Source of the DNA: Nemertoderma westbladi
Lineage: Eukaryota; Animalia; Xenacoelomorpha
DNA length: 45,565 bases
Reading direction: 5' to 3'
Assembly (NCBI GenBank): GCA_032718475.1
Contig: JAUCBJ010004447.1
Location: 1 to 45,565, forward strand
Shown here: positions 10,758 to 39,373 of the stretch, piece by piece
Numbering within the stretch: the first letter of the stretch is position 1
Layout of the letters: each line of letters opens with the position of its first letter
The notes under the pieces: generated by a model
The model's input: the letters and a program-made list of their open reading frames with translations, nothing else
Told to the model about the DNA's origin: nothing
Database searches by the model: none
Program-made: the position numbers and the translations under genes

Positions 10758-10883
10758 ATGTCAACGACCACCCGGAGTCGCAACATAAAGGCTGCCCACG
10801 AGCAAAGTGAGGAGGGAATGGAGTCCCAGGATAGACTGGTCGCTACAGCCCAGGCCGATCTGATAACTCCACAGGTCGACAAG
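10758..10883 (+). CDS. DNAH6: Axonemal dynein heavy chain 6, coding exon 1 (putative start)
   Basis: ATG..AAG|gtaact, 126 nt open (MSTTTRSRNIKAAHEQ..QVDK), phase 0, compatible with exon 2. Low conservation, so inferred from frame and splice sites. Confidence 0.6.
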
Positions 10884-11105
10884 GTAACTATAGTAACTAT
10901 TTAGTTATGTCTATCACGGTGGTTTATAAAAACATAATATATTATGTTTTTATAATATATATATACATCGGTTACCAGGTATTTATACCGTAAGGTATTT
11001 TTACCAAACACGCATGAAGTTTAAACTGGTAATATCGACAGAGAAAGTTGCGTGCCCGGTCAAAGGCGCGCGGAAACATTATGTATTTAATGGGGGGGGG
11101 GGGGG

Positions 11106-11268
11106 ATCTTTTACAGGTGATCAAAGTAGTATTATTGCCAAATATTTCAACCAATTTATATTATTATAATAATAATTATATATATACTAGACAGGTCTTC
11201 ATTAGTGGCGGCACAGAATCTATCTACTGAAATGTGAAATAATACTACTTTTATAACCTGTAAAAGAT
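11106..11268. mobile_element. Small MITE-like element with ~31-bp terminal inverted repeats
   Basis: ATCTTTTACAGGTGATCAAAGTAGTATTATT pairs with AATAATACTACTTTTATAACCTGTAAAAGAT. Confidence 0.55.
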
Positions 11269-11406
11269 AATTAAACTGGTAATATTTTATGCAGATTCGA
11301 ATCATTATTTAAACATTGTCTATATGAGTAGCATTATTACAATCTCATAAGGTCCAACTCACATTTTTTTATATTCCAAATATAATTTATATATATAATA
11401 TTATAG

Positions 11407-11556
11407 GAGGAGTTGAAACAGCGATTGTATTCGGAAACAAATTCCGAGTTTATGGCTACAAGTCAAGTCAATCCATTTGTTATACGTTTCCACGGTCCAA
11501 CCCCAGCCCAGGACGTTGCTAGGGCAAGACCATCTGGTCCCAACTTGGAACCCTTG
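11407..11556 (+). CDS. DNAH6: DNAH6 coding exon 2
   Basis: tatag|GAG..TTG|gtaagt. EELKQRLY..RPSGPNLEPL resembles the DNAH6 N-terminal KQRV..QPIKLEPL as I recall it. Confidence 0.8.
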
Positions 11557-11948
11557 GTAAGTCACAATCGGAACAGGAACATCATACCTATTTATGGTTA
11601 AAAATATTCTAGAATCCGTAGCCCAATGATATATCAGATATATTTAAATAGCTAATGTTTTTCCACTTTACGTTCTCCCACAATTTTTTCCACTTCTAAA
11701 CAAAATCCTTATTATAATATTATTTATCCTGTCTGTTCCGTCATTGTAGCCAGTTCTGTGTATTTTTTATTTATAACCAGTTTTGTGTACTTTCCCTTAT
11801 TGACGTGGACTTTCTCGTGGAACCAGTTGTGCGGAGTGGACTAAACCTTTTGTAACCTGGGTGTGACTCTCCACTTTATAACCAATTATGTGCACCTTTC
11901 CCACATATACTTCACTTGTAACCAGTTCTGCGACGTTACCCTTTATAG

Positions 11949-12085
11949 CCAGTTCTGTGTACTTTCCAATCACAAAACCAAATAGAATACATTCATGAAC
12001 GCCGATTGGAGGAACTGGTTGCTAAGGGTTACAAACCCCCTAGAAAGAAATCCAAAGAAGACCTCGGGGAAAGCCAAGACGTCAG
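11949..12085 (+). CDS. DNAH6: DNAH6 coding exon 3
   Basis: ctttatag|CCA..AG|gttagt. PVLCTFQSQNQIEYIHE matches DNAH6 PVLK..EYIHE; phases 0/2. Confidence 0.82.
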
Positions 12086-12871
12086 GTTAGTTAACACAGT
12101 AGGTCCTGGGTAAGGCGCTGGTGCAGCTAACAGATGTAGTTTTAATTCAAAATTTAAACTTTTGTCATAAAAGGTGAATTTTGTTAGTGGTTATACTTTG
12201 AGTTTAAGGGTAGAGTATCAGCCGCTTTCATTGAAATATTTCCGAAATTTCCGCCTTTTTATTATTTTTATTAACGTACATAGTGGTAATCATAACTAAT
12301 ATATAATAAGCACTATAGAGAGGGATAATGGTGGTGGTATGAAGAACGTTTTAGCAATTTTACGAAAAAAATTGAAATGCCAATTAGTTTGCCAGTAATA
12401 ATATCGTATAAAATAGGTGGGGTAATTCACTAAATTCATTGTAATTTAATTCTTAATTCGTCAATATTATGCTTATCCAAATAAATAACAGTCAAGCTTA
12501 ATTTATTCTTTAACTAGTGTTCTTTATTGACTCTGGTTTATTAATTTTTAAATACATTTATGTTTTATATTTTACAATATTTTATATATTTATTCTGGAG
12601 TGAAGGATGACTTTTACAGTTATAAATCGTATAATGATAATGAATTTTATTATAAAATTATAAATCTTTAAATAATTTAAACAGAGTGAAAGACACTTTT
12701 TCGCTTCATTAAAATCCTTTATAATTTATGCAATTTATTGTTGATGTTTAACATCTAAAAATTAAGTATTGGAGTGATTGGCACAAAATTGTTCAGGCAT
12801 CCATTACCCACAGCGAGATTTCTATAAAATGCGCTACCTTACAGAGCTGTCGATATTATTGGAATACACGA

Positions 12872-13255
12872 AGTGGGGACTTCGCGCAGCACGAAGTTGG
12901 CAGAGCCTTAGCGAATTGACACTGTTAGGGGGTAGGTCAATTTATGCAAATAGTCACGTTGGCCCTCTAGCGGCAGACTGGAGAACTGCAGATGGATTCG
13001 CCTCCTTTGAAAGTCACAGCTAATGGTCTAATACATATCTGCCAAGTTTCAGCTTAAACGGATTAAAAGCAAAGAAATGGGAGGGCATTTAATGTTTAGA
13101 CATGTGGCCCTCTAGCGGGAGACCATTGCACTGATGGTGTCTGAAAGTCTCTCAAAAATCTCAACTTTTGCTCATATTGATACCTACAAATTTTCAACTT
13201 GGCAGCTTTAAATCCGACAAAGTTATTAGCATGTCAAAATCGTAACGACGACGAC

Positions 13256-13287
<32 letters not shown>

Positions 13288-13386
13288 CAACGACGACGAC
13301 GACGACGACAACTATTTGCATAAATTGACCCACCCCCTAACAGTGTCAATTCGCTAAGGCTCCGCCAACTTCGTGGCTCGCCCCAC
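12872..13386. mobile_element. Non-autonomous DNA element with ~70-bp inverted ends and an internal (ACG)n microsatellite
   Basis: CACGAAGTTGGCAGAGCCTTAGCGAATTGACACTGTTAGGGGGTAGGTCAATTTATGCAAATAGT (about 12890-12954) is inverted at 13311-13375. (ACG)n at about 13245-13310. The terminal motif recurs at 44333. Confidence 0.7.
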
Positions 13387-13860
13387 AAACACTAAGAAAT
13401 AGCTTAACTACAGTACGAATAGTGGAATACCCAGTATTCTGTTATTGACTATATTTTACCTACTTGTGTGGATAAAACTGTTTGTAATATTGAACTATGA
13501 AAAAGAGCAACAGTTATGATTTTTGTACTATTATTTGCCAAGAACAGTTTGTTGTATTAACTCCAATTGGTTGAACAAAATTACGTATCATTGTATGAAA
13601 ATCTGAGTTATCAGCATTAAAGAACCTTGCTTGTTTTTTAAACATCGTCCCCAGCTCTAACTAAGTAACTAAGTAATGTGTTAGGTTGTCCTCTACTTAC
13701 AGTTCTAATATGCTGTAGAACACATCGCAATAAGGTCAATTAATACTAAAGGTGTCCAACGAAATTAGGAATTAAAAAGTTAGAATTTTTGTGGAAAAAA
13801 ATTATAATAGTACCTCGTTTGTTGGGCCAATTTTACTAAAAGTTTCCTTCTGTGGTATAG

Positions 13861-13948
13861 ATTTCCGACACGACTTCCTCCCATAGAAGTGGAAGACGAA
13901 AGGAGGAAATCGGCTTCGGCTCAAAGGCAGAAAGACGTCCCGTACAAG
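13861..13948 (+). CDS. DNAH6: DNAH6 coding exon 4
   Basis: ggtatag|ATT..TACAAG|gtgggt; 88 nt, phases 2/0, FPTRLPPIEVEDERRKSASAQRQKDVPYK. Bridges exon 3 and exon 5 in frame. Confidence 0.8.
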
Positions 13949-16900
13949 GTGGGTTTACTTAGAAGTCCCTTACAAGGTGGGTTTACTTAGAAGTCCCTTA
14001 CAAGGTGGGTTTACTTAGAAGTCCCTTACAAGGTGGGTTTACTTAGAAGTCCCTTACAAGGTGGGTTTACTTAGAAGTCCCTTACAAGGTGGGTTTACTT
14101 AGAAGTCCCTTACATAGTGGGTTTACTTAGAAGTCCCTTACAAGGTGGGTTTACTTAGAAGTCCCTTACATAGTGGGTTTACTTAGAAGTCCCTAATAAG
14201 GTGGGTTTACTTAGAAGTCCCTTACATAGTGGGTTTACTTAGAAGTCCCTTACAAGGTGGGTTTACTTAGAAGTCCCTTACATAGTGGGTTTACTTAGAA
14301 GTCCCGTACAAGGTGGGTTTACTTAGAAGTCCCTTACATAGTGGGTTTACTTAGAAGTCCCTAATAAGGTGGGTTTACTTAGAAGTCTCGTACAAGGTGG
14401 GTTTACTTAGAAGTCCCTAATAAGGTGGGTTTACTTAGAAGTCCCTTACATAGTGGGTTTACTTAGAAGTCCCTTACAAGGTGGGTTTACTTAGAAGTCC
14501 CTTACATAGTGGGTTTACTTAGAAGTCCCTAATAAGGTGGGTTTACTTAGAAGTCCCTTACATAGTGGGTTTACTTAGAAGTCCCTTAAAAGGTGGGTTT
14601 ACTTAGAAGTCCCTTACATAGTGGGTTTACTTAGAAGTCCCTAATAAGGTGGGTTTACTTAGAAGTCTCGTACAAGGTGGGTTTACTTAGAAGTCCCTAA
14701 TAAGGTGGGTTTACTTAGAAGTCCCTTACATAGTGGGTTTACTTAGAAGTCCCTTACAAGGTGGGTTTACTTAGAAGTCCCTTACATAGTGGGTTTACTT
14801 AGAAGTCCCGTACAAGGTGGGTTTACTTAGAAGTCCCTTACATAGTGGGTTTACTTAGAAGTCCCTAATAAGGTGGGTTTACTTAGAAGTCTCGTACAAG
14901 GTGGGTTTACTTAGAAGTCCCTAATAAGGTGGGTTTACTTAGAAGTCCCTTACATAGTGGGTTTACTTAGAAGTCCCTTACAAGGTGGGTTTACTTAGAA
15001 GTCCCTTACATAGTGGGTTTACTTAGAAGTCCCTAATAAGGTGGGTTTACTTAGAAGTCCCTTACATAGTGGGTTTACTTAGAAGTCCCTTACAAGGTGG
15101 GTTTACTTAGAAGTCCCTTACATAGTGGGTTTACTTAGAAGTCCCTAATAAGGTGGGTTTACTTAGAAGTCCCTTACAAGGTGGGTTTACTTAGAAGTCC
15201 CTAATAAGGTGGGTTTACTTAGAAGTCCCTTACATAGTGGGTTTACTTAGAAGTCCCTTACAAGGTGGGTTTACTTAGAAGTCTCGTACAAGGTGGGTTT
15301 ACTTAGAAGTCCCTAATAAGGTGGGTTTACTTAGAAGTCCCTTACATAGTGGGTTTACTTAGAAGTCCCTTACAAGGTGGGTTTACTTAGAAGTCCCTTA
15401 CAAGGTGGGTTTACTTAGAAGTCCCTTACATAGTGGGTTTACTTAGAAGTCCCTAATAAGGTGGGTTTACTTAGAAGTCCCTTACAAGGTGGGTTTACTT
15501 AGAAGTCCCTTACAAGGTGGGTTTACTTAGAAGTCCCTTACATAGTGGGTTTACTTAGAAGTCCCTAATAAGGTGGGTTTACTTAGAAGTCCCTTACAAG
15601 GTGGGTTTACTTAGAAGTCCCTTACAAGGTGGGTTTACTTAGAAGTCCCTTACATAGGTGGGTTTACTTAGAAGTCCCTTACATAGTGGGTTTACTTAGA
15701 AGTCCCTTACAAGGTGGGTTTACTTAGAAGTCCCTAATAAGGTGGGTTTACTTAGAAGTCCCTTACAAGGTGGGTTTACTTAGAAGTCCCTTACAAGGTG
15801 GGTTTACTTAGAAGTCCCTTACATAGTGGGTTTACTTAGAAGTCCCTTACATAGGTGGGTTTACTTAGAAGTCCCTTACATAGGTGGGTTTACTTAGAAG
15901 TCCCTTACATAGTGGGTTTACTTAGAAGTCCCTTACAAGGTGGGTTTACTTAGAAGTCCCTTACAAGGTGGGTTTACTTAGAAGTCCCTTACATAGGTGG
16001 GTTTACTTAGAAGTCCCTTACATAGTGGGTTTACTTAGAAGTCCCTTACATAGTGGGTTTACTTAGAAGTCCCTAATAAGGTGGGTTTACTTAGAAGTCC
16101 CTTACAAGGTGGGTTTACTTAGAAGTCCCTAATAAGGTGGGTTTACTTAGAAGTCCCTTACATAGTGGGTTTACTTAGAAGTCCCTTACAAGGTGGGTTT
16201 ACTTAGAAGTCCCTTACAAGGTGGGTTTACTTAGAAGTCCCTTACAAGGTGGGTTTACTTAGAAGTCCCTTACATAGTGGGTTTACTTAGAAGTCCCTAA
16301 TAAGGTGGGTTTACTTAGAAGTCCCTTACAAGGTGGGTTTACTTAGAAGTCCCTTACATAGTGGGTTTACTTAGAAGTCCCTAATAAGGTGGGTTTACTT
16401 AGAAGTCCCTTACATAGGTGGGTTTACTTAGAAGTCCCTTACAAGGTGGGTTTACTTAGAAGTCCCTTACATAGTGGGTTTACTTAGAAGTCCCTTACAT
16501 AAGTGTGGGTTTACTTAGAAGTCCCTAATAAGGTGGGTTTACTTAGAAGTCCCTTACATAGGTGGGTTTACTTAGAAGTCCCTTACAAGGTGGGTTTACT
16601 TAGAAGTCCCTTACATAGTGGGTTTACTTAGAAGTCCCTTACATAGTGGGTTTACTTAGAAGTCCCTTACAAGGTGGGTTTACTTAGAAGTCCCTTACAT
16701 AGTGGGTTTACTTAGAAGTCCCTAATAAGGTGGGTTTACTTAGAAGTCCCTTACATAGTGGGTTTACTTAGAAGTCCCTTACAAGGTGGGTTTACTTAGA
16801 AGTCCCTTACAAGGTGGGTTTACTTAGAAGTCCCTTACAAGGTGGGTTTACTTAGAAGTCCCTTACATAGTGGGTTTACTTAGAAGTCCCTAATAAGGTG

Positions 16901-19900
16901 GGTTTACTTAGAAGTCCCTAATAAGGTGGGTTTACTTAGAAGTCCCTTACATAGTGGGTTTACTTAGAAGTCCCTTACAAGGTGGGTTTACTTAGAAGTC
17001 CCTTACATAGTGGGTTTACTTAGAAGTCCCTTACAAGGTGGGTTTACTTAGAAGTCCCTTACATAGTGGGTTTACTTAGAAGTCCCTAATAAGGTGGGTT
17101 TACTTAGAAGTCCCTAATAAGGTGGGTTTACTTAGAAGTCCCTTACATAGTGGGTTTACTTAGAAGTCCCTAATAAGGTGGGTTTACTTAGAAGTCCCTT
17201 ACATAGTGGGTTTACTTAGAAGTCCCTTACAAGGTGGGTTTACTTAGAAGTCCCTTACATAGTGGGTTTACTTAGAAGTCCCTTACAAGGTGGGTTTACT
17301 TAGAAGTCCCTTACATAGTGGGTTTACTTAGAAGTCCCTAATAAGGTGGGTTTACTTAGAAGTCCCTTACATAGTGGGTTTACTTAGAAGTCCCTAATAA
17401 GGTGGGTTTACTTAGAAGTCCCTTACATAGTGGGTTTACTTAGAAGTCCCTTACAAGGTGGGTTTACTTAGAAGTCCCTAACAAGGTGGGTTTACTTAGA
17501 AGTCCCTTACAAGGTGGGTTTACTTAGAAGTCCCTTACATAGTGGGTTTACTTAGAAGTCCCTTAAGTGGGTTTACTTAGAAGTCCCTAATAGTGGGTTT
17601 ACTTAGAAGTCCCTTACATAGTGGGTTTACTTAGAAGTCCCTTACAAGGTGGGTTTACTTAGAAGTCCCTTACATAGTGGGTTTACTTAGAAGTCCCTTA
17701 CATAGGTGGGTTTACTTAGAAGTCCCTTACAAGGTGGGTTTACTTAGAAGTCCCTTACATAGTGGGTTTACTTAGAAGTCCCTAATAAGGTGGGTTTACT
17801 TAGAAGTCCCTTACATAGTGGGTTTACTTAGAAGTCCCTTACAAGGTGGGTTTACTTAGAAGTCCCTTACATAGTGGGTTTACTTAGAAGTCCCTAATAA
17901 GGTGGGTTTACTTAGAAGTCCCTTACAAGGTGGGTTTACTTAGAAGTCCCTTACATAGTGGGTTTACTTAGAAGTCCCTAATAAGGTGGGTTTACTTAGA
18001 AGTCCCTAATAAGGTGGGTTTACTTAGAAGTCCCTTACATAGTGGGTTTACTTAGAAGTCCCTAATAAGGTGGGTTTACTTAGAAGTCCCTTACATAGTG
18101 GGTTTACTTAGAAGTCCCTTACAAGGTGGGTTTACTTAGAAGTCCCTAACAAGGTGGGTTTACTTAGAAGTCCCTTACAAGGTGGGTTTACTTAGAAGTC
18201 CCTTACATAGTGGGTTTACTTAGAAGTCCCTGATAAGGTGGGTTTACTTAGAAGTCCCTTACATAGTGGGTTTACTTAGAAGTCCCTTACAAGGTGGGTT
18301 TACTTAGAAGTCCCTTACATAGTGGGTTTACTTAGAAGTCCCTAATAAGGTGGGTTTACTTAGAAGTCCCTTACAAGGTGGGTTTACTTAGAAGTCCCTT
18401 ACATAGTGGGTTTACTTAGAAGTCCCTAATAAGGTGGGTTTACTTAGAAGTCCCTTACAAGGTGGGTTTACTTAGAAGTCCCTTACATAGTGGGTTTACT
18501 TAGAAGTCCCTAATAAGGTGGGTTTACTTAGAAGTCCCTTACATAGTGGGTTTACTTAGAAGTCCCTTACAAGGTGGGTTTACTTAGAAGTCCCTAACAA
18601 GGTGGGTTTACTTAGAAGTCCTTTACAAGGTGGGTTTACTTAGAAGTCCCTTACATAGTGGGTTTACTTAGAAGTCCCTAATAAGGTGGGTTTACTTAGA
18701 AGTCCCTTACAAGGTGGGTTTACTTAGAAGTCCCTTACATAGTGGGTTTACTTAGAAGTCCCTAATAAGGTGGGTTTACTTAGAAGTCCCTTACAAGGTG
18801 GGTTTACTTAGAAGTCCCTTACAAGGTGGGTTTACTTAGAAGTCCCTTACATAGTGGGTTTACTTAGAAGTCCCTAATAAGGTGGGTTTACTTAGAAGTC
18901 CCTTACAAGGTGGGTTTACTTAGAAGTCCCTTACATAGTGGGTTTACTTAGAAGTCCCTAATAAGGTGGGTTTACTTAGAAGTCCCTTACAAGGTGGGTT
19001 TACTTAGAAGTCCCTTACAAGGTGGGTTTACTTAGAAGTCCCTTACATAGTGGGTTTACTTAGAAGTCCCTAATAAGGTGGGTTTACTTAGAAGTCCCTT
19101 ACAAGGTGGGTTTACTTAGAAGTCCCTTACGAGGTGGGTTTACTTAGAAGTCCCTTACACGGTGGGTTTACTTAGAAGTCCCTTACAAGGTGGGTTTTCT
19201 TAGAAGTCCCTTACAAGGTGGGTTTACTTAGAAGTCCCTTACATAGTGGGTTTACTTAGAAGTCCCTAATAAGGTGGGTTTACTTAGAAGTCCCTTACAT
19301 AGTGGGTTTACTTAGAAGTCCCTTACAAGGTGGTTTTACTTATAAGTCCCTTACATAGTGGGTTTACTTAGAAGTCCCTAATAAGGTGGGTTTACTTAGA
19401 AGTCCCTTACAAGGTGGGTTTACTTAGAAGTCCCTTACATGGCGGATTTACTTAGAAGTCCCTTACAAGGTGGGTTTACTTAGAAGTCCCTTACATAGTG
19501 GGTTTACTTAGAAGTCCCTTACAAGGTGGGTTTACTTAGAAGTCCCTTACATAGTGGGTTTACTTAGAAGTCCCTTACAAGGTGGGTTTACTTAGAAGTC
19601 CCTTACATAGTGGGTTTACTTAGAAGTCCCTTACAAGGTGGGTTTACTTAGAAGTCCCTTACATAGTGGGTTTACTTAGAAGTCCCTAATAAGGTGGGTT
19701 TACTTAGAAGTCCCTTACATAGTGGGTTTATTTAGAAGTCCCTTACAAGGTGTGTTTACTTAGAAGTCCCTTACATAGTGGGTTTACTTAGAAGTCCCTA
19801 ATAAGGTGGGTTTACTTAGAAGTCCCTTACATAGTGGGTTTACTTAGAAGTCCCTAATAAGGTGGGTTTACTTAGAAGTCCCTTACAAGGTGGGTTTACT

Positions 19901-20322
19901 TAGAAGTCCCTTACATAGTGGGTTTACTTAGAAGTCCCTTACAAGGTGGGTTTACTTAGAAGTCCCTTACATAGTGGGTTTACTTAGAAGTCCCTAATAA
20001 GGTGGGTTTACTTAGAAGTCCCTTACATAGTGGGTTTATTTAGAAGTCCCTTACAAGGTGTGTTTACTTAGAAGTCCCTTACATAGTGGGTTTACTTAGA
20101 AGTCCCTAATAAGGTGGGTTTACTTAGAAGTCCCTTACATAGTGGGTTTACTTAGAAGTCCCTAATAAGGTGGGTTTACTTAGAAGTCCCTTACAAGGTG
20201 GGTTTACTTAGAAGTCCCTTACATGGTGGATTTACTTAGAAGTCCCTTACAAGGTGGGTTTACTTAGAAGTCCCTTACAAGGTGGGTTTACTTAGAAGTC
20301 CCTTACAAGGTGGGTTTACTTA
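13937..20322 (+). repeat. 28-bp tandem array, 228 copies, each a copy of the exon-4 donor junction (GTCCCTTACAAG|GTGGGTTTACTTAGAA)
   Basis: First GT at 13949, last at 20310; distance 6361 = 227 x 28 + 5, with seven +1, one +3, one -3 and one -2 indels located by eye. Confidence 0.95.
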
Positions 20323-20393
20323 TATTGATATTTGCAATTGATTTTTTAACCACTTTGTTGGCATTTCTGTTAATTTTGAATTCGGATTGACTA

Positions 20394-23300
20394 TATAACA
20401 ACTTATTTGGCTGCAGGATGTCGGCTATTGTCCCGGTTCGATCTCTATAACTCTTTATTTGGCTGCAGGGTGTCGGCTATTGTCCCGGTTCGATCTCTAT
20501 AGCACTTTATTTGGCTGCAGGGTGTCTGTTATTGTCCCGGTTCGATCTCTATAACTCTTTATTTGGCTGCAGGGTGTCGGCTATTGTCCCGGTTCGATCT
20601 CTATAACTCTTTATTTGGCTGCAGGGTGTCGGCTATTGTCCCGGTTCGATCTCTATAACTCTTTATTTGGCTGCAGGGTGTCGGCTATTGTCCCGGTTCG
20701 ATCTCTATAACTCTTTATTTGGGTGCAGGGTGTCGGCTATTGTCCCGGTTCGATCTCTATAACCCTTTATTTGGCTGCAGGGTGTCGGCTATTGTCCCGG
20801 TTCGATCTCTATAACCCTTTATTTGGCTGCAGGGTGTCGGTTATTGTCCCGGTTCGATCTCTATAACTCTTTATTTGGCTGCAGGGTGTCGGCTATTGTC
20901 CCGGTTCGATCTCTATAACCCTTTATTTGGCTGCAGGGTGTCGGCTATTGTCCCGGTTCGATCTCTATAACTCTTTATTTGGCTGAAGGGTGTCGGCTAT
21001 TGTCCCGGTTCGATATCTATAACACTTTATTTGGCTGCAGGGTGTCGGTTATTGTCCCGGTTCGATCACTATAACTCTTTATTTGGCTGCATAGTGTCGG
21101 GTATTGTCCCTGTTCTATCACTATAACCCTTTATTTTGCTGTAGGGTGTCGGCTATTTTCCCTGTTCTATCTCTATAACTCTTTATTTGGCTGCAGGGTG
21201 TCGGCTATTGTCCCGGTTCGATCACTATAACACTTTATTTGGCTGCAGGGTGTCGGCTATTGTCCCGGTTCGATCTCTATAACTCTTTATTTGGCTGCAG
21301 GGTGTCGGTTATTGTCCCGGTTCGATCTCTATAACTCTTTATTTGGCTGCAGGGTGTCGGCCATTGTCCCGGTTCGATATCTATAACACTTTATTTGGCT
21401 GCAGGGTGTCTGTTATTGTCCCGGTTCGATCTCTATAACTCTTTATTTGGCTGCAGGGTGTCGGCTATTGTCCCGGTTCGATCTCTATAACTCTTTATTT
21501 GGCTGCAGGGTGTCGGTTATTGTCCCGGTTCGATCACTATAACTCTTTATTTGGCTGCAGGGTGTCGGCTATTGTTCCGGTTCGATCTCTATAACTCTTT
21601 ATTTGGCTGCAGGGTGTCGGCTATTGTCCCTGTTCTATCACTATAACCCTTTATTTGGCTGCAGGGTGTCGGCTATTGTCCCGGTTCGATCTCTATAACT
21701 CTTTATTTGGCTGCAGGGTGTCGGCTATTGTCCCGGTTCGATCTCTATAACTCTTTATTTGGCTGCAGGGTGTCGGCTATTGTCCCGGTTCGATCTCTAT
21801 AACTCTTTATTTGGCTGCAGGGTGTCGGCTATTGTCCCGGTTCGATCTCTATAACTCTTTATTTGGCTGCAGGGTGTCGGCTATTGTCCCGGTTCGATCT
21901 CTATAACTCTTTATTTGGCTGCAGGGTGTCGGCTATTGTCCCGGTTCGATCTCTATAACTCTTTATTTGGCTGCAGGGTGTCGGCTATTGTCCCGGTTCG
22001 ATCTCTATAACTCTTTTGCAGGGTGTCGGCTATTGTCCCGGTTCGATCTCTATAACTCTTTATTTGGCTGCATGGTGTCGGCTATTGTCCCGGTTCGATC
22101 TCTATAACTCTTTATTTGGCTGCAGGGTGTCGGTTATTGTCCCGGTTCGATCTCTATAACTCTTTATTTGGCTGCAGGGTGTCGGCTATTGTCCCGGTTC
22201 GATCTCTATAACTCTTTATTTGGCTGCAGGGTGTCGGCTATTGTCCCGGTTCGATCTCTATAACTCTTTATTTGGCTGCAGGGTGTCGGCTATTGTCCCG
22301 GTTCGATATCTATAACACTTTATTTGGCTGCAGGGTGTCGGCTATTGTCCCGGTTCGATCTCTATAACTCTTTATTTGGCTGCAGGGTGTCGGCTATTGT
22401 CCCGGTTCGATCTCTATAACTCTTTATTTGGCTGCAGGGTGTCGGCTATTGTCCCGGTTCGATCTCTATAACTCTTTATTTGGCTGCAGGGTGTCTGTTA
22501 TTGTCCCGGTTCGATCTCTATAACTCTTTATTTGGCTGCAGGGTGTCGGCTATTGTCCCGGTTCGATATCTATAACACTTTATTTGGCTGCAGGGTGTCT
22601 GTTATTGTCCCGGTTCGATCTCTATAACTCTTTATTTGGCTGCAGGGTGTCGGCTATTGTCCCGGTTCGATATCTATAACACTTTATTTGGCTGCAGGGT
22701 GTCGGCTATTGTCCCGGTTCGATCACTATAACTCTTTATTTGGCTGCAGGGTGTCGGCTATTGTCCTGGTTCGATCTCTATAACTCTTTATTTGGCTGTA
22801 GGGTGTCGGCTATTGTCCCGGTTCGATCTCTATAACTCTTTATTTGGCTGCAGGGTGTCGGCTATTGTCCCGGTTCGATCTCTATAACTCTTTATTTGGC
22901 TGCAGGGTGTCGGCTATTGTCCCGGTTCGATATCAATAACACTTTATTTGGCTGCAGGGTGTCTGTTATTGTCCCGGTTCGATCTCTATAACTCTTTATT
23001 TGGCTGCAGGGTGTCGGCTATTGTCCCGGTTCGATCTCTATAACTCTTTATTTGGCTGCAGGGTGTCGGCTATTGTCCCGGTTCGATCTCTATAACTCTT
23101 TATTTGGCTGCAGGGTGTCGGCTATTGTCCCGGTTCGATATCTATAACTCTTTATTTGGCTGCAGGGTGTCGGCTATTGTCCCGGTTCGATCACTATAAC
23201 TCTTTATTTGGCTGCAGGGTGTCGGCTATTGTCCCGGTTCGATCTCTATAACTCTTTATTTGGCTGCAGGGTGTCGGCTATTGTCCCGGTTCGATCTCTA

Positions 23301-26300
23301 TAACCCTTTATTTGGCTGCAGGGTGTCGGCTATTGTCCCGGTTCGATCACTATAACTCTTTATTTGGCTGCAGGGTGTCGGCTATTGTCCCTGTTCTATC
23401 ACTATAACCCTTTATTTTGCTGCAGGGTGTCGGCTATTGTCCCGGTTCGATCTCTATAACTCTTTATTTGGCTGCAGGGTGTCGGCTATTGTCCCGGTTC
23501 GATCTCTATAACTCTTTATTTGGCTGCAGGGTGTCGGTTATTGTCCCGGTTCGATCACTATAACACTTTATTTGGCTGCAGGGTGTCGGCTATTGTCCCG
23601 GTTCGATCTCTATAACTCTTTATTTGGCTGCAGGGTGTCGGCTATTGTCCCGGTTCGATCTCTATAACTCTTTATTTGGCTGCAGGGTGTCGGTTATTGT
23701 CCCGGTTCGATCTCTATAACTCTTTATTTGGCTGCAGGGTGTCGGCTATTGTCCCGGTTCGATCACTATAACTCTTTATTTGGCTGCAGGGTGTCGGCTA
23801 TTGTCCCGGTTCGAACTCTATAACTCTTTATTTGGCTGCAGGGTGTCGGTTATTGTCCCGGTTCGATCTCTATAACTCTTTATTTGGCTGCAGGGTGTCG
23901 GCTATTGTCCCGGTTCGATCACTATAACTCTTTATTTGGCTGCAGGGTGTCGGCTATTGTCCCGGTTCGAACTCTATAACTCTTTATTTGGCTGCAGGGT
24001 GTCGGCTATTGTCCCGGTTCGATATCTATAACACTTTATTTGGCTGCAGGGTGTCGGCTATTGTCCCGGTTCGATCTCTATAACTCTTTATTTGGCTGCA
24101 GGGTGTCGGTTATTGTCCCGGTTCGATCTCTATAACTCTTTATTTGGCTGCAGGGTGTCGGCTATTGTCCCGGTTCGAACTCTATAACTCTTTATTTGGC
24201 TGCAGGGTGTCGGCTATTGTCCCGGTTCGAACTCTATAACTCTTTATTTGGCTGCAGGGTGTCGGCTATTGTCCCGGTTCGATATCTATAACACTTTATT
24301 TGGCTGCAGGGTGTCGGTTATTGTCCCGGTTCGATCTCTATAACTCTTTATTTGGCTGCAGGGTGTCGGTTATTGTCCCGGTTCGATCTCTATAACTCTT
24401 TATTTGGCTGCAGGGTGTCGGCTATTGTCCCGGTTCGATCACTATAACTCTTTATTTGGCTGCAGGGTGTCGGCTATTGTCCCGGTTCGAACTCTATAAC
24501 TCTTTATTTGGCTGCAGGGTGTCGGCTATTGTCCCGGTTCGATCACTATAACTCTTTATTTGGCTGCAGGGTGTCGGCTATTGTCCCGGTTCGATATCTA
24601 TAACACTTTATTTGGCTGCAGGGTGTCGGCTATTGTCCCTGTTCTATCTCTATAACTCTTTATTTGGCTGCAGGGTGTCGGCTATTGTCCCGGTTCGATC
24701 TCTATAACTCTTTATTTGGCTGCAGGGTGTCGGCTATTGTCCCGGTTCGTTCTCTATAACTCTTTATTTGGCTGCAGGGTGTCGGTTATTGTCCCGGTTC
24801 GATCTCTATAACTCTTTATTTGGCTGCAGGGTGTCGGCTATTGTCCCGGTTCGATCACTATAACTCTTTATTTGGCTGCAGGGTGTCGGCTATTGTCCCG
24901 GTTCGATATCTATAACACTTTATTTGGCTGCAGGGTGTCGGCTATTGTCCCGGTTCGATCTCAATAACTCTTTATTTGGCTGCAGGGTGTCGGCTATTGT
25001 CCCGGTTCGATCACTATAACTCTTTATTTGGCTGCAGGGTGTCGGCTATTGTCCCGGTTCGATCTCTATAACTCTTTATTTGGCTGCAGGGTGTCGGCTA
25101 TTGTCCCGGTTCGATATCTATAACTCTTTATTTGGCTGCAGGGTGTCGGCTATTGTCCCGGTTCGATATCTATAACTCTTTATTTGGCTGCAGGGTGTCG
25201 GCTATTGTCCCGGTTCGATCTCTATAACTCTTTATTTGGCTGAAGGGTGTCGGCTATTGTCCCGGTTCGATATCTATAACACTTTATTTGGCTGCAGGGT
25301 GTCGGCTATTGTCCCGGTTCGATCTCTATAACTCTTTATTTGGCTGCAGGGTGTCGGCTATTGTCCCGGTTCGATATCTATAACTCTTTATTTGGCTGCA
25401 GGGTGTCGGCTATTGTCCCGGTTCGATCTCTATAACTCTTTATTTGGCTGAAGGGTGTCGGCTATTGTCCCGGTTCGATATCTATAACACTTTATTTGGC
25501 TGCAGGGTGTCGGTTATTGTCCCGGTTCGATCACTATAACTCTTTATTTGGCTGCATAGTGTCGGGTATTGTCCCTGTTCTATCACTATAACCCTTTATT
25601 TTGCTGTAGGGTGTCGGCTATTTTCCCTGTTCTATCTCTATAACTCTTTATTTGGCTGCAGGGTGTCGGCTATTGTCCCTGTTCTATCACTATAACCATT
25701 TATTTGGCTGCAGGGTGTCGGCTATTGTCCCGGTTCGATCTCTAACTCTTTATTTGGCTGCAGTGTGTCGGCTATTGTCCCGGTTCGATATCAATAACAC
25801 TTTATTTGGCTGCAGGGTGTCGGCTATTGTCCCTGTTCTATCACTATAACCATTTATTTGGCTGCAGGGTGTCGGCTATTGTCCCGGTTCGATCTCTAAC
25901 TCTTTATTTGGCTGCAGGGTTTCGGTTATTGTCCCGGTTCGATCACTATAACTCTTTATTTGGCTGCAGGGTGTCGGCTATTGTCCCGGTTCGATCTCTA
26001 TAACTCTTTATTTGGCTGCAGGGTGTCGGCTATTGTCCCGGTTCGATCTCTAACTCTTTATTTGGCTGCAGGGTTTCGGTTATTGTCCCGGTTCGATCAC
26101 TATAACTCTTTATTTGGCTGCAGGGTGTCGGCTATTGTCCCGGTTCGATATCAATAACACTTTATTTGGCTGCAGGGTTTCGGTTATTGTCCCGGTTCGA
26201 TCTCTAACTCTTTATTTGGCTGCAGGGTGTCGGCTATTGTCCCGGTTCGATCACTATAACTCTTTATTTGGCTGCAGGGTGTCGGTTATTGTCCCGGTTC

Positions 26301-29300
26301 GATATCTATAACTCTTTATTTGGCTGCAGGGTGTCGGCTATTGTCCCGGTTCGATATCTATAACTCTTTATTTGGCTGCAGGGTGTCGGCTATTGTCCCT
26401 GTTCTATCTCTATAACTCTTTATTTGGCTGCAGGGTGTCGGTTATTGTCCCGGTTCGATCTCTATAACTCTTTATTTGGCTGCAGGGTGTCGGCTATTGT
26501 CCCGGTTCGATCACTATAACTCTTTATTTGGCTGCAGGGTGTCGGCTATTGTCCCGGTTCGATCTCTATAACTCTTTATTTGGCTGCAGGGTGTCGGCTA
26601 TTGTCCCGGTTCGATCTCTATAACTCTTTATTTGGCTGCAGGGTGTCGGTTATTGTCCCGGTTCGATCTCTATAACTCTTTATTTGGCTGCAGGGTGTCG
26701 GCTATTGTCCCGGTTCGATCACTATAACTCTTTATTTGGCTGCAGCGTGTCGGCTATTGTCCCGGTTCGATCTCTATAACTCTTTATTTGGCTGCAGGGT
26801 GTCGGTTATTGTCCCGGTTCGATCTCTATAACACTTTATTTGGCTGCAGGGTGTCGGCTATTGTCCCGGTTCGATCACTATAACACTTTATTTGGCTGCA
26901 GGGTGTCGGCTATTGTCCCGGTTCGATCTCTATAACTCTTTATTTGGCTGTAGGGTGTCGGCTATTGTCCCGGTTCGATCACTATAACTCTTTATTTGGC
27001 TGCAGGGTGTCGGCTATTGTCCCGGTTCGATCTCTATAACTCTTTATTTGGCTGTAGGGTGTCGGCTATTGTCCCGGTTCGATCACTATAACTCTTTATT
27101 TGGCTGCAGGGTGTCGGCTATTGTCCCGGTTCGATATCTATAACACTTTATTTGGCTGCAGGGTGTCGGCTATTGTCCCGGTTCGATCACTATAACTCTT
27201 TATTTGGCTGCAGGGTGTCGGCTATTGTCCCGGTTCGATATCTATAACACTTTATTTGGCTGCAGGGTGTCGGCTATTGTCCCGGTTCGATCACTATAAC
27301 ACTTTATTTGGCTGCAGGGTGTCGGCTATTGTCCCGGTTCGATCTCTATAACTCTTTATTTGGCTGTAGGGTGTCGGCTATTGTCCCGGTTCGATCACTA
27401 TAACTCTTTATTTGGCTGCAGGCGCAGGGTGTCGGCTATTGTTCCGGTTCGATCTCTATAACTCTTTATTTGGCTGCAGGGTGTCGGCTATTGTCCCGGT
27501 TCGATCTCTATAACTCTTTATTTGGCTGTAGGGTGTCGGCTATTGTCCCGGTTCGATATCTATAACACTTTATTTGGCTGCAGGGTGTCGGGTATTGTCC
27601 CTGTTCTATCACTATAACCCTTTATTTTGCTGCAGGGTGTCGGTTATTGTCCCGGTTCGATCTCTATAACCCTTTATTTGGCTGCAGGCGCAGGGTGTCG
27701 GCTATTGTTCCGGTTCGATCTCTATAACTCTTTATTTGGCTGCAGGGTGTCGGCTATTGTCCCGGTTCGATCTCTATAACTCTTTATTTGGCTGTAGGGT
27801 GTCGGCTATTGTCCCGGTTCGATCTCTATAACTCTTTATTTGGCTGCAGGGTGTCGGCTATTGTCCCGGTTCGATATCTATAACACTTTATTTGGCTGCA
27901 GGGTGTCGGCTATTGTCCCGGTTCGATCTCTATAACCCTTTATTTGGCTGCAGGGTGTCGGCTATTGTCCCGGTTCGATATCTATAACACTTTATTTGGC
28001 TGCAGGGTGTCGGTTATTGTCCCGGTTCGATCACTATAACTCTTTATTTGGCTGCATAGTGTCGGGTATTGTCCCTGTTCTATCACTATAACCCTTTATT
28101 TTGCTGCAGGGTGTCGGCTATTGTCCCGGTTCGATCACTATAACTCTTTATTTGGCTGAAGGGTGTCGGCTATTGTCCCGGTTCGATATCTATAACACTT
28201 TATTTGGCTGCAGGGTGTCGGTTATTGTCCCGGTTCGATCACTATAACTCTTTATTTGGCTGCATAGTGTCGGGTATTGTCCCTGTTCTATCCTTATAAC
28301 CCTTTATTTTGCTGCAGGGTGTCGGCTATTGTCCCGGTTCGATCACTATAACTCTTTATTTGGCTGAATAGTGTCGGGTATTGTCCCGGTTCGATCTCTA
28401 TAACTCTTTATTTGGCTGCAGGGTGTCGGCTATTGTCCCGGTTCGATCTCTATAACTCTTTATTTGGCTGCAGGGTGTCGGCTATTGTCCCGGTTCGATC
28501 TCTATAACTCTTTATTTGGCTGCAGGGTGTCGGTTATTGTCCCGGTTCGATCTCTATAACTCTTTATTTGGCTGCAGGGTGTCGGCTATTGTCCCGGTTC
28601 GATCTCTATAACTCTTTATTTGGCTGCAGGGTGTCGGCTATTGTCCCGGTTCGATCTCTATAACTCTTTATTTGGCTGCAGGGTGTCGGCTATTGTCCCG
28701 GTTCGATCTCTATAACTCTTTATTTGGCTGCAGGGTGTCGGCTATTGTCCCGGTTCGATCACTATAACTCTTTATTTGGCTGCATAGTGTCGGGTATTGT
28801 CCCGGTTCGATCTCTATAACTCTTTATTTGGCTGCAGGGTGTCGGCTATTGTCCCGGTTCGATCTCTATAACTCTTTATTTGGCTGCAGGGTGTCGGCTA
28901 TTGTCCCTGTTCTATCACTATAACCATTTATTTGGCTGCAGGGTGTCGGCTATTGTCCCGGTTCGATCTCTATAACTCTTTATTTGGCTGAAGGGTGTCG
29001 GCTATTGTCCCGGTTCGATATAACACTTTATTTGGCTGCAGGGTGTCGGTTATTGTCCCGGTTCGATCACTATAACTCTTTATTTGGCTGCATAGTGTCG
29101 GGTATTGTCCCTGTTCTATCACTATAACCCTTTATTTGGCTGCAGGGTGTCGGCTATTGTCCCGGTTCGATCTCTATAACTCTTTATTTGGCTGCAGGGT
29201 GTCGGCTATTGTCCCGGTTCGATCTCTATAACTCTTTATTTGGCTGCAGGGTGTCGGCTATTGTCCCGGTTCGATATCTATAACACTTTATTTGGCTGCA

Positions 29301-32240
29301 GGGTGTCGGCTATTGTCCCGGTTCGATCTCTATAACTCTTTATTTGGCTGAAGGGTGTCGGCTATTGTCCCGGTTCGATATCTATAACACTTTATTTGGC
29401 TGCAGGGTGTCGGTTATTGTCCCGGTTCGATCACTATAACTCTTTATTTGGCTGCATAGTGTCGGGTATTGTCCCTGTTCTATCACTATAACCCTTTATT
29501 TTGCTGTAGGGTGTCGGTTATTGTCCCGGTTCGATCTCTATAACTCTTTATTTGGCTGCAGGGTGTCGGCTATTGTCCCGGTTCGATCACTATAACCATT
29601 TATTTGGCTGCAGGGTGTCGGCTATTGTCCCGGTTCGATCTCTATAACTCTTTATTTGGCTGCAGGGTGTCGGTTATTGTCCCGGTTCGATCTCTATAAC
29701 TCTTTATTTGGCTGCAGGGTGTCGGCTATTGTCCCGGTTCGATCACTATAACTCTTTATTTGGCTGCAGGGTGTCGGCTATTGTCCCGGTTCGATCTCTA
29801 TAACCCTTTATTTGGCTGCAGGGTGTCGGGTATTGTCCCTGTTCTATCACTATAACCCTTTCTTTTGCTGCAGGGTGTCGGCTATTGTCCCGGTTCGATC
29901 TCTATAACTCTTTATTTGGCTGCAGGGTGTCGGGTATTGTCCCTGTTCTATCACTATAACCCTTTCTTTTGCTGCAGGGTGTCGGCTATTGTCCCGGTTC
30001 GATCTCTATAACTCTTTATTTGGCTGCAGGGTGTCGGCTATTGTCCCGGTTCGATCACTATAACTCTTTATTTGGCTGCAGGGTGTCGGCTATTGTCCCG
30101 GTTCGATCTCTATAACCCTTTATTTGGCTGCAGGGTGTCGGGTATTGTCCCTGTTCTATCACTATAACCCTTTCTTTTGCTGCAGGGTGTCGGCTATTGT
30201 CCCGGTTCGATCTCTATAACTCTTTATTTGGCTGCAGGGTGTCGGCTATTGTCCCGGTTCGATCTCTATAACTCTTTATTTGGCTGCATAGTGTCGGCTA
30301 TTGTCCCTGTTCTATCACTATAACCCTTTATTTTGCTGTAGGGTGTCGGCTATTTTCCCTGTTCTATCTCTATAACTCTTTATTTGGCTGCAGGGTGTCG
30401 GCTATTGTCCCGGTTCGATCTCTATAACTCTTTATTTGGCTGCAGGGTGTCGGTTATTGTCCCGGTTCGATCTCTATAACTCTTTATTTGGCTGCAGGGT
30501 GTCGGCTATTGTCCCGGTTCGATCACTATAACTCTTTATTTGGCTGCAGGGTGTCGGCTATTGTCCCGGTTCGATCTCTATAACCCTTTATTTGGCTGCA
30601 GGGTGTCGGCTATTGTCCCGGTTCGATCTCTATAACTCTTTATTTGGCTGCAGTGTGTCGGTTATTGTCCCGGTTCGATCTCTATAACTCTTTATTTGGC
30701 TGCAGGGTGTCGGCTATTGTCCCGGTTCGATCTCTATAACTCTTTATTTGGCTGCAGGGTGTCGGTTATTGTCCCGGTTCGATCTCTATAACTCTTTATT
30801 TGGCTGCAGGGTGTCGGCTATTGTCCCGGTTCGATCACTATAACTCTTTATTTGGCTGCAGGGTGTCGGCTATTGTCCCGGTTCGATCTCTATAACCCTT
30901 TATTTGGCTGCAGGGTGTCGGCTATTGTCCCGGTTCGATCTCTATAACTCTTTATTTGGCTGCAGTGTGTCGGTTATTGTCCCGGTTCGATCTCTATAAC
31001 TCTTTATTTGGCTGCAGGGTGTCGGCTATTGTCCCGGTTCGATATCAATAACACTTTATTTGGCTGCAGGGTTTCGGTTATTGTCCCGGTTCGATATCTA
31101 TAACTCTTTATTTGGCTGCAGGGTGTCGGCTATTGTCCCGGTTCGATCTCTATAACTCTTTATTTGGCTGCAGGGTTTCGGTTATTGTCCCGGTTCGATA
31201 TCAATAACTCTTTATTTGGCTGCAGGGTGTCGGTTATTGTCCCGGTTCGATCACTATAACCATTTATTTGGCTGCAGGGTGTCGGCTATTGTCCCGGTTC
31301 TATCTCTATAACTCTTTATTTGGCTGCATAGTGTCGGGTATTGTCCCTGTTCTATCACTATAACCCTTTATTTTGCTGTAGGGTGTCGGCTATTTTCCCT
31401 GTTCTATCTCTATAACTCTTTATTTGGCTGCAGGGTGTCGGCTATTGTCCCGGTTCGATCTCTATAACCCTTTATTTGGCTGCAGGGTGTCGGCTATTGT
31501 CCCGGTTCGATATCTATAACACTTTATTTGGCTGCAGGGTGTCGGTTATTGTCCCGGTTCGATCACTATAACTCTTTATTTGGCTGCATAGTGTCGGGTA
31601 TTGTCCCTGTTCTATCACTATAACCCTTTATTTTGCTGTAGGGTGTCGGCTATTTTCCCTGTTCTATCTCTATAACTCTTTATTTGGCTGCAGGGTGTCG
31701 GCTATTGTCCCGGTTCGATATCAATAACACTTTATTTGGCTGCAGGGTTTCGGTTATTGTCCCGGTTCGATCACTATAACTCTTTATTTGGCTGCAGGGT
31801 GTCGGCTATTGTCCTGGTTCGATCACTATAACTCTTTATTTGGCTGCAGGGTGTCGGCTATTGTCCCGGTTCGATCTCTATAACTCTTTATTTTGCTGCA
31901 GGGTGTCGGCTATTGTCCCGGTTCGATCTCTATAACCCTTTATTTGGCTGCAGGGTGTCGGCTATTGTCCCGGTTCGATATCTATAACCCTTTATTTGGC
32001 TGCAGGGTGTCGGCTATTGTCCCGGTTCGATCTCTATAACCCTTTATTTGGCTGCAGGGTGTCGGCTATTTTCCCGGTTCGATCTCTATAACTCTTTATT
32101 TGGCTGCAGGGTGTCGGCTATTGTCCCGGTTCGATCTCTATAACCCTTTATTTGGCTGCAGGGTGTCGGCTATTGTCCCGGTTCGATATCTATAACCCTT
32201 TATTTGGCTGCAGGGTGTCGGTTATTGTCCCGGTTCGATC
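20394..32240 (+). repeat. 52-bp tandem array, 228 copies, each a copy of the exon-5 acceptor junction (TCTATAACTCTTTATTTGGCTGCAG|GGTGTCGGCTATTGTCCCGGTTCGATC)
   Basis: First AG ends 20416, last ends 32213; distance 11797 = 227 x 52 - 7, with indels -7, four -2, two +6 and -4 located by eye. Confidence 0.95.
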
Positions 32241-32353
32241 AAGGACATCCATGATGTTATCAACTTCATCAGGAACAATCCCAGTGTTGGATTCGTATAT
32301 CTCAGCGCTTGCGTTCCCAAATCATCTGTTGAATATCATCCCTATAACCTCAA
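32214..32353 (+). CDS. DNAH6: DNAH6 coding exon 5
   Basis: ggctgcag|GGT..CTCAA|gtaagc. GVGYCPGSIKDIHDVINFIRNNPSVGFVYLSACVPKSSVEYHPYNLK matches DNAH6 IRENEHLGFLYM..PRSSIEYDTYNLK. The first 27 nt are part of the last 52-bp unit. Confidence 0.88.
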
Positions 32354-33405
32354 GTAAGCTTTAGGACAACGTCTAACCACCACGTCCTGGAATATTAATA
32401 TTTTCTTTAAGTTTAATGGCGAAATTTGATTCTTAAAAATATAGTAAAATGCTTTGAAACACAAACACACGGGGGAAATGCAAGTTCTCCATGTGTATTA
32501 AGTAGTTTTGCTTCGTCGTGGCATTTTTGGAACGATCTACGACAACGAAAGTACCATATGATACAATGCGCGGAGTGAGTAATACCATATAGTACAATGC
32601 CCCGGGGTAAGTATATTATTAGTACCATATGGATGGCACAATTCCTAGAGGGGTTTTTTAACATACAACACTGGGTCCTACTTTCTACGATTACCCGCCA
32701 GCGTACACTTGCGTCTGACACCTTCGGTTTAGGTCGTTAGCGTTCGATTTTGCCCCGTAAAATAAATATTTTAACATCTGATGGCGATAAATATCATTAT
32801 AAACTACGGTGGTGATTTGCGGCCTTTTCCCTTTTACCTTAATTAAATAATTTTACTCTTTACCTTCCAAATAATTTTACTCTTTCTTTACCTTTTTCAA
32901 TAATTTTACTCTTTACCTTTTTCAATAATTTTACTCTTTACCTTTTTCAATAATTTTTACTCTTTACCTTTTTTAATAATTTTACTCTTTACCTTTTCCA
33001 ATAATTTGACACTTTTCAACAAGCAGACTTGGCCTTAACTGTTATAAATTGAACCGTTAGGGGTTAAGTACCGGTATTCATCTAGCCTATATTGTACTGT
33101 ACCCTACCCGTTATTGAACGGAACTGAAACAGTGTTAAATAAATATTTGAATTAGGCCTACTACATAGCTATCTATTACGAGGCGGTTTATATTGACTAC
33201 GAATTGTTACGAAAGTTATGTTTGATTTTAATTGTTAATGTTGTTTATCTGTGATATGTTTCACAATGAAAACGTTTTGTATCTTATAGTTCCTCCTTTC
33301 ATATCCTTAAGGGGGGGGGGGGGGGGGGGGGGGGGGGGTTGACTAATTAACCAAAAATGTTCGTTCCCTTATTTAGGAGGCTTCGTTTTACCCAAGATTA
33401 TTAAT

Positions 33406-33490
33406 CAAGCAAGCAGTCGGCCGAAGCCGGAGGCGACCCGAAGGCTCCTCTTTCGATAGCTGCTACCCGAGGAGGGTAGGGGTGTGTTCG
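33406..33490. mobile_element. Interspersed repeat fragment (probable reversed SINE tail), second copy at 40649-40740
   Basis: GTCGGCCGAAGCCG..GCGACCCGAAGGCTCCTCTT..GATAGCTGCTACCCGA..GGTAGGGGTG is shared between the two sites, each preceded by CAAGCAA repeats. Confidence 0.6.
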
Positions 33491-34229
33491 CGCTTTTAGA
33501 CCTTTAGTAGCAGTTTAACCTGCCAAATTTAGGTGTCTTTTTGGTTATAAATCGACTTTTGCCTATAACAAGTATTTGATACACATAAAGCTACATTAGC
33601 CGAAGCCAGCCTATGCGCGATCATTCACCCACGGTTAAGGGAGACTGGATTCGGATGCTTCAACCTTATTGCGGTGTAGACCTACTGTATTATTCGATTG
33701 ATCGTTAATATAATCTCTGACAAATATTATTCACTTTCGGGAAATATTAACAGTTCCTTTAGGACGTGGCGCTCTAAGTATGTAAACAGAGTTATGACTT
33801 ACACTAAACACAACGGGATGGCTAATGATTCACGTATAAAGCGCATTCTTTAGGAGATGCTTTGTTATCTATCACACTCATGCACACTACCGCACACTGC
33901 TGCACACTGATCTGCCGACCTTCACCAATTTTAATCATATATAAGGAGAACAGCAACTGACACATGTAGGGTCTATGAAATAGCATTCAATTCACTCCAA
34001 AACCACTATAAGGTAAGTCGCAATTGCTATATGTAACCGGTCTCTCTAACCTTCAGTATATCAAGAAGATTGGGGTTTTCTGATTATTTATCGATATTCT
34101 CCAAATATAACAACATTCCATTAACTGATAACAATTAATAACCGACAGTAAATAGCAGTAAAATAATGCGGTGAAAGATTGAGTTGATTTGCTATGAGTC
34201 TGCTTTGATAACAGTTATACGTTTCTATG

Positions 34230-35153
34230 TTATTCGTTTATACGTTTCACTAGCAAGCCAGATTTCCGCAAATGATGAGAATTCCACATTTCTCTTATTG
34301 AATTCAGCAACCGTTGCAATAGATCCATATACACATACCGGATCAGTTCTATATGGATCCGATTAGAAGTAGTGATGACACTATAACCATCCAACTGAGC
34401 GAAGTGTTCAATCCAATGTTGTAAGCCAAGTTTTGGAAATTGGCTCCACCACGCCTCAATCCTCTGATTTCGAGAACTTTTACCGTACATATAGGTTGTG
34501 TTATGTTCTGCCCGCGTGTCATCATCAAAAGCTCGCAAATACCGTTGAATAACTTCTATATTAACATTTTCCGTTCCACAGTCGGAACGAATCAAATGAG
34601 GAAGACCTCCAAAATTTTTCACAGCATCAATAAAATAATGTCCGATTACGAATGGATCATTGTTGGTAGAGCTGCACTGCAGCCACAGTAGTTTGCGGCT
34701 ATAACCATCAATGCATCCGTGAAGGGCGAGTCCATAGTTTTTCAACTTATCCCACCCGTCCACATGGTGAATATAGTTTGGTCCTAATGCGTAATAACTG
34801 CGACGTACTACTTTGTTCCTAATGCGATCGGCAACAAGTTGCGGATTTAACGTTTTTTGTATGAGTGCTACTAATTCTTCACGTGCAAATAAACCATACT
34901 TTCGAAGTAGAATCCTCTTCATTTGGCGGTAACCACACGACGGCTCTCGAGAAATGGCGTTTATGATCAGTTTAATATTATCAACATCACACCTCTTCTT
35001 CAAATTTATGTCAAACAATAGGCGACGGACAGTTCGCGATGAAATCCGAATTAAATGTCTCTCATTGAGCAATCTACTGATTTCTAAGTGAGTATACCCT
35101 AAAGAATAGTAATCCGTTAATGTCTCGTTTAAATGTAGCATACTCATGGTCAT
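34230..35153 (-). CDS. Transposase with integrase-core (RNase H fold) DDE domain, 307 aa, C-terminus possibly truncated or spliced
   Basis: N-terminal HTH-like segment (GYTHLEISRLL..ISSRTVRRLL), GYRQM, and catalytic motifs HVDGWDKLK, IDGYSRK, IRSDCGTEN, NQRIEAWW. Confidence 0.88.
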   Translation of the reverse strand: MTMSMLHLNETLTDYYSLGYTHLEISRLLNERHLIRISSRTVRRLLFDINLKKRCDVDNIKLIINAISREPSCGYRQMKRILLRKYGLFAREELVALIQKTLNPQLVADRIRNKVVRRSYYALGPNYIHHVDGWDKLKNYGLALHGCIDGYSRKLLWLQCSSTNNDPFVIGHYFIDAVKNFGGLPHLIRSDCGTENVNIEVIQRYLRAFDDDTRAEHNTTYMYGKSSRNQRIEAWWSQFPKLGLQHWIEHFAQLDGYSVITTSNRIHIELIRYVYMDLLQRLLNSIREMWNSHHLRKSGLLVKRINE

Positions 35154-35591
35154 ACAATATGGCTCACAATGCTATACACAGTTCAGTTCAATCTGTTCAC
35201 AGTAAAGTTGACACCGTTTCAGTTCCGAAAGACTTCAAAGGTCAATAACGGGTATGGTACAATATATGTAGGCTAGGTGAATTCCGCTACCAGTACTTAG
35301 CGGGTTCGATCCGATTCGTACGTTCGATTCGCAACAGTTAAGGCCAAGTCTGCTTGTTGAAAAGAGTAAAATTATTGAAAAAGGTAAAGAGTAAAATTAT
35401 TGAAAAAGGTAAAGAGTAAAATTATTGAAAAAGGTAAAGAGTAAAATTATTTGGAAGGTAAAAGTAAAATTATTTGGAAGGTAAAGAGTAAAATTATTTG
35501 TAAGGTAAAGAGTAAAATTATTTAATTAAGGTAAAAGGGAAAAGGCCGCAAATCACCACCGTAATAAACGTTGTATATTTTATTCTCTCAG

Positions 35592-35696
35592 AGTTACGCC
35601 GCATAAGCAAATCAATCCTAGTGATTACTACACTCTCTCCCAGACCGGTGTGATTCATGTCTGCGATGGCGATTCAGAATACACAACATTGGAAGG
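35592..35696 (+). CDS. DNAH6: DNAH6 coding exon 6
   Basis: ctctcag|A..GG|gttagt; VTPHKQINPSDYYTLSQTGVIHV..EYTTLE; phases 2/2. Confidence 0.9.
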
Positions 35697-39341: not shown

Positions 39342-39373
39342 TTGTTTGTCACATTATTTTTCTATATTTTTAG

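Follow-up and report, generated by a model that had tools for sequence, protein, structure and literature searches.

Tandem copies of both splice junctions occupy intron 4 of a DNAH6-like dynein heavy chain gene in Nemertoderma westbladi

Tandem arrays over splice junctions have been described in lancelet and human genes. The lancelet arrays, called mirages, occur in Adh3, the globin genes BflGb6 and BflGb9, the troponin C gene and PGBD5, and leave splicing undisturbed according to the available text of the two reports (PMC3087553, PMC3902484). Intron 7 of human F7 contains a 37-bp VNTR; in the accessible parts of the study (PMC1557585), its pseudo-sites are functional and only the most upstream site is used, and inactivation of the first donor shifts splicing to the next one. 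These data were obtained for donors in mammalian cells, with 5-9 copies. The same source describes arrays in 6-16, CBS, LAMIN B2 and PDGF alongside F7, and in 6-16 and CBS splicing also takes place at the two pseudo-sites that follow. A splice-site tandem array within a single gene is also formed by the dual-specificity sites of the polyubiquitin gene UBC, whose units are coding, in frame and stochastically spliced in the portion of the paper available (PMC10809524).

Here we describe intron 4 of a DNAH6-like gene, found in a window (the whole stretch of DNA analysed) of 45,565 nt from Nemertoderma westbladi (contig JAUCBJ010004447.1). The structure is likely an extreme case of the splice-junction minisatellite class previously described in lancelet and human genes. 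As in the mirages, so far as the available text of PMC3087553 describes them, tandem units lie over the exon-intron boundary, at 5' or 3' ends; GT or AG is kept by many but not all units (here 227/228 GT and 216/228 AG); the units of 28 and 52 nt are inside the Adh3 range of 10-72 bp; several sites occur per genome; and the authentic sites are joined (here in two contigs of one public run, X4). Unlike the mirages in that text, the arrays described here occupy both intron ends at once and fill 99.6% of the intron, with 228 copies per end compared to 3-6 in BflGb6. The F7 VNTR, as presented in the accessible parts of PMC1557585, shares with the donor side of intron 4 a first monomer over the donor, identical pseudo-sites after it, the intronic hexamer gtgggt and use of the most upstream site; F7 and the related human arrays are at donors only and have 5-25 copies, whereas the array in intron 4 is about 10 times longer and has an acceptor array facing it. 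In contrast to UBC, the units of intron 4 are intronic and out of frame, with donors and acceptors in separate arrays. What is unusual here is the scale, the presence at both ends of one intron, and the equal counts (228:228). A literature search, with most subscription papers outside its coverage, found no two-ended array of such size and no experiment on acceptor arrays of such size.

The gene and its junction arrays

We modelled the gene on the forward strand. Remarks on contigs in the feature lines refer to run X4.

10758..44308, + strand: DNAH6-like axonemal dynein heavy chain gene, 5' portion, with 14 coding exons inside the window (our own model)
13861..13948, + strand: exon 4, 88 nt, open frame; the last 30 loose letters precede exon 5 in a contig
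32214..32353, + strand: exon 5, 140 nt, DNAH6 match; both ends joined to neighbouring exons in contigs
35592..35696, + strand: exon 6; its first 30 letters come after 32353 in a contig

The 14-exon model translates into 688 aa with zero stops, and exon 4 joined to exon 5 is open and in frame; the initial annotation had considered the flanking exons intact and the gene apparently functional, and the intactness is borne out over these 14 exons. Over aa 67-688, the model shows 45% identity to P0007, a full-length protein of 4150 residues. In comparisons with PDB, DNAH6 chains were the top three matches for both exon 13 (E 9.8e-20) and exon 5 (E 4.7e-05), residues 8-46 of the latter aligning to DNAH6 182-220. 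Based on these matches, which lie in the N-terminal tail, we designate the gene DNAH6-like; the motor domain (AAA ring, stalk) would be encoded beyond the window. A homologous-protein search, which covered lengths to 2000 only, gave no matches. When conservation of the repeated exon ends was looked at, the alignment with orthologues was poor around the exon 4/5 junction.

Intron 4 consists almost entirely of two arrays, which together make up 18,185 nt of its 18,265 nt.

13949..32213, + strand: intron 4, 18,265 nt, GT..AG ends; junction across it in a contig
13933..20322, + strand: donor array, 228 units of 28 nt, each unit comprising the intron start and the end of exon 4
20403..32240, + strand: acceptor array, 228 units of 52 nt, each unit comprising the intron end and the first 26-27 nt of exon 5
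20310..20416, + strand: GT..AG core of 107 nt from the innermost donor to the innermost acceptor, with about 80 nt of unique spacer inside

The 28-nt unit straddles 13948/13949 and the 52-nt unit straddles 32213/32214; the acceptor count of 228 takes in one 45-nt unit at 22021. GT is present in all donor register units except one. AG is in register in 216 acceptor units and displaced 2 nt downstream in a further 11. The authentic 9-mer is retained in 133 donors and AG/GT in 144, while the authentic 15-mer is retained in 187 acceptors and YAG in 209. These unit counts bear out the figure of 227 competitors per side given by the initial annotation, but its term "near-identical" was generous, as only 133 donors and 187 acceptors share the authentic motif. 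The two arrays include 22 and 61 distinct unit types, respectively, in non-periodic order. The 107-nt core is likely to be the remnant of an ancestral short intron.

One variant at the splice site, CATAGTG, is common to both arrays (about 78 donor units and 10 acceptor units). It weakens the donor and moves the acceptor by 2 nt. Its occurrence in both arrays is probably a coincidence.

RNA structure was considered as a discriminator of the real sites and rejected. Predicted accessibility showed no difference between real sites and copies (0.47 vs 0.49; 0.53 vs 0.55), and pairing between the donor and acceptor arrays was not stronger than that of shuffled sequences (-31.9 vs -36.1 +/- 6.4 kcal/mol).

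A second large junction array is located at the donor of exon 13.

41546..44065, + strand: 47 units of 54 nt over the exon 13 donor, without a facing acceptor array

Copies of a junction (at least 16/20 letters within 400 nt) were found at 6 of the 27 splice sites of the gene and at 3 of 400 control positions, a contrast that is overstated because the controls were picked away from arrays. Short, decayed junction duplications are present at the exon 3 acceptor (11750-11949), the exon 9 acceptor (36855-36932) and the exon 12 donor (40531-40640).

The window contains other repeats and elements as well. On the minus strand, a pyrimidine-rich unit of 34 nt is repeated 87 times (2086-5047), stopping just short of the CAG acceptor of the last exon of a C2H2 zinc-finger gene; this array has 2 AG in 2,962 nt vs 26 expected by composition, a deficit that counts as one event because a single unit was amplified. 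Three more minisatellites (17, 15 and 33 nt) lie around the zinc-finger gene within 652-9866, off splice sites as far as mapped. Another 34-nt unit, with CTAAC (45 times) and a pyrimidine run, is repeated 55 times at 37484-39341, leaving 33 nt between the last copy and the acceptor of exon 11; it resembles an array of branch-point motifs. In intron 5, an ORF of 313 residues on the minus strand (34233-35171) encodes an integrase core domain (PF24764, E 8.4e-34) and is flanked by inverted blocks of 25-nt repeats (32833-33015 and 35361-35535); ORF and blocks together are likely a transposon. A dispersed element is found at 33415-33495 and 40660-41245, and the end of its intron 12 copy has given rise to an array of 15 units of 36 nt.

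Reading frame and the junction found in public runs

The estimate of about 52,000 pairings made from the sequence in the initial annotation corresponds to 228 x 228 = 51,984. We enumerated the 48,805 GT x AG pairings in register (227 x 215, leaving out the 45-nt short unit) and determined the reading frame of each. Only the outermost pair, 13948/32214, was open and in frame, and it was also the single open pair among all 500,912 intronic GT x AG pairs. The majority of the others end at one codon.

13988..13990, + strand: in-frame TAG in the second donor unit, which kills donors from the third onward

Because of this TAG, only donors 1 and 2 are stop-free, and 48,375 of the 48,805 pairings (99%) terminate there. 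Another 286 are frame-shifted and then stopped, 141 have an in-frame length and The enumeration thus reproduced three statements of the initial annotation: that the outermost pair alone is productive, that donors from the third onward meet an in-frame TAG, and that the frame-restoring combinations traced run into TAA.

The same annotation had presented this uniqueness, one in 52,000, as remarkable, and in this it did not hold. When the intronic parts of both units were shuffled (12 x 12 pairings), exactly one productive pair was obtained in 1451 of 2000 trials. Of the 13 introns of the gene, 12 contain between 1 and 6 open GT x AG pairs, and in 4 introns the number is exactly one. One in 52,000 is unremarkable because 1-6 open pairs are to be found in almost any intron and the task reduces to two independent choices. 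A single open pair is not above chance expectation. In the array of intron 13, the first four donors (41576, 41630, 41684 and 41738) are in frame and are predicted to add 18 residues each, later ones being frameshifted, and an acceptor array is absent opposite; therefore, neither stops nor matched counts are the rule in this gene. Stops in the repeats would be the normal content of intron-derived sequence.

Employing contigs of public runs aligned to 32140-32385, we looked for the junctions of exon 5; donor-side alternatives were visible via one X4 contig end only. In X4, 13948 is joined to 32214, and 32353 is joined to 35592. The upstream contig extension is identical to 13917-13946 and the downstream extension to 35592-35621, and both of these 30-letter loose ends have an exact, single match in the window. 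Use of donor 2 would yield letters other than those in the contig. The X4 contigs are regarded as spliced on the ground that their loose ends correspond to exons at distances of 18.3 kb and 3.2 kb. The support consists of two contigs, with a depth of 6-11, from a single run of a single study; the library label "DNA?" of this run is a guess. None of the matching public runs was on record as RNA, a blank that carries no weight as evidence. X4 contains a tenth of the query words, which is about the share of exon 5; its cover is zero on the array part and on intron 5 of 32140-32385, gaps that prove nothing. Intron 4 is spliced at the outermost pair in X4. Skipping of exon 4 or 5, or use of other boundaries, which the initial annotation had named as the case against its interpretation, was not seen in these contigs.

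Contigs of X1 and X2 (one sample, possibly the source) and of X3 run into intron 5. The acceptor repeat is present in the raw data, because the acceptor unit is found on many high-depth contigs of these three runs. These contigs bear on the possibility that assembly artefacts contribute to the array lengths, and hence to the figure of 52,000 and to the equal counts. A double tandem array of 18 kb is difficult to assemble, and the summed contig depth of the acceptor unit relative to exon 5 varies widely among runs (about 21, 36-62 and 185 fold), depth not being copy number. However, the two arrays contain 22 and 61 distinct unit types in an order that is not periodic, and contigs with the acceptor unit at high depth, again no measure of copy number, are numerous in two samples. 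We see very little chance that artefacts account for these features.

Choice of splice site and the equal counts

We consider it quite probable that joining of the outermost pair reflects recognition of each exon by the spliceosome and use of the nearest site, the copies being tolerated and mostly silent repeats. By analogy with F7, the donor chosen would be the first one downstream of the exon 4 acceptor, and the acceptor chosen would be the one nearest the exon 5 donor. Exon length is not sufficient to single out the real sites, because an exon length of <=300 nt can be obtained from 8 donors and 4 acceptors. Such exon-proximal choice agrees with the human F7 array experiments in the accessible parts of PMC1557585. 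As to origin, two independent local duplications may have occurred, one over each end of a short intron (about 107 nt), and each may have grown as a minisatellite through slippage or unequal exchange. New copies would accumulate on the intron side only, and because of this the real sites would remain outermost. Rare splicing errors would be sent to NMD.

A leakier choice, in which the nearest few copies are often used and their products degraded, with DNAH6 output reduced by the length of the array or by its variants, would impose a real NMD load. Each alternative pairing does stop early, the authentic 9-mer recurs in 133 donors, two further donors are used in 6-16 and CBS (PMC1557585, available text), and contigs omit rare and degraded forms. 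However, errors would be expected from the few exon-adjacent copies and the load would not scale with total length; deletion of F7 monomers left splicing unchanged in the accessible text of PMC1557585; and the first alternatives of the intron 13 array give in-frame products, which are not NMD substrates. A substantial load of this kind is, in our judgement, unlikely, and we found no support for the heavy NMD load, or for the NMD-based tuning of dynein dosage by repeat length, raised in the initial annotation. Recognition of each exon with its nearest site remains our preferred explanation.

The two arrays match in number (228 units each; 227 GT-bearing vs 227 AG-bearing). Under log-uniform priors, and calculated post hoc, the probability of an exact match is 0.08-0.22%; the counts are probably equal by chance. 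With the arrays set in mirror register, the order of variants in one was uncorrelated with that in the other (rank 90, 21 and 129 of 227 for three labelings).

Matched counts would be needed if the intron were removed from the inside out, the 107-nt core first and then successive 80-nt introns, in 228 rounds. The equal counts would suit such nested splicing; the core and each later step have the size of an ordinary short intron, the end junction would be identical to that of exon-proximal choice, as in X4, and transcription of 227 acceptor copies ahead of the real one would cease to be a difficulty. Stepwise removal via internal sites is also the mode of intrasplicing and recursive splicing of long introns, in the parts of 10.1101/159350 and PMC4482092 available; unlike in those cases, use of an upstream acceptor copy in intron 4 restores no GT at the junction, and stepwise intermediates were not seen in the contigs. 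Several observations speak against inside-out removal. Sites of the strong type are unmatched (144 AG/GT donors vs 209 YAG acceptors), and the variants lack mirror correlation (rank 90 of 227). In intron 13, 47 donors face a single acceptor, and the innermost donor copy of that array is without GT. Moreover, the exon junction complex acts against re-splicing in the vicinity of newly formed junctions, as described in the available text of PMC8184009, and a single site missed over the 228 rounds would be enough to spoil the message, while minisatellite length is unstable according to the accessible text of PMC3087553. Taken with these points, the nested route seems very improbable. We give hardly any credence to a further form of it, a telescoping intron in which pairs are consumed from the core outward, selection holds the array lengths equal, and the arrays act as a counter or timer for maturation of the dynein mRNA. 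If equal counts were enforced, this would be a new way of intron removal; the evidence makes that unlikely.

Ratchet-point recursive splicing (YAG/GT) was also considered and rejected: acceptor units read CAG/GGT, and in the common donor units GT is preceded by AAG, TAG being present in only 7 units.

With the site nearest each exon as the preferred reading, intron 4 provides an extreme natural test of splice-site choice, in which the correct junction is still made with 227 competitors per side. As we read it, the rule that the nearest site wins, known from F7, would extend to acceptors and to arrays about 10 times longer. Growth from its own ends can apparently take an intron from about 0.1 kb to 18 kb. 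The locus is a good natural substrate for the study of splice-site choice rather than evidence for a new control system.
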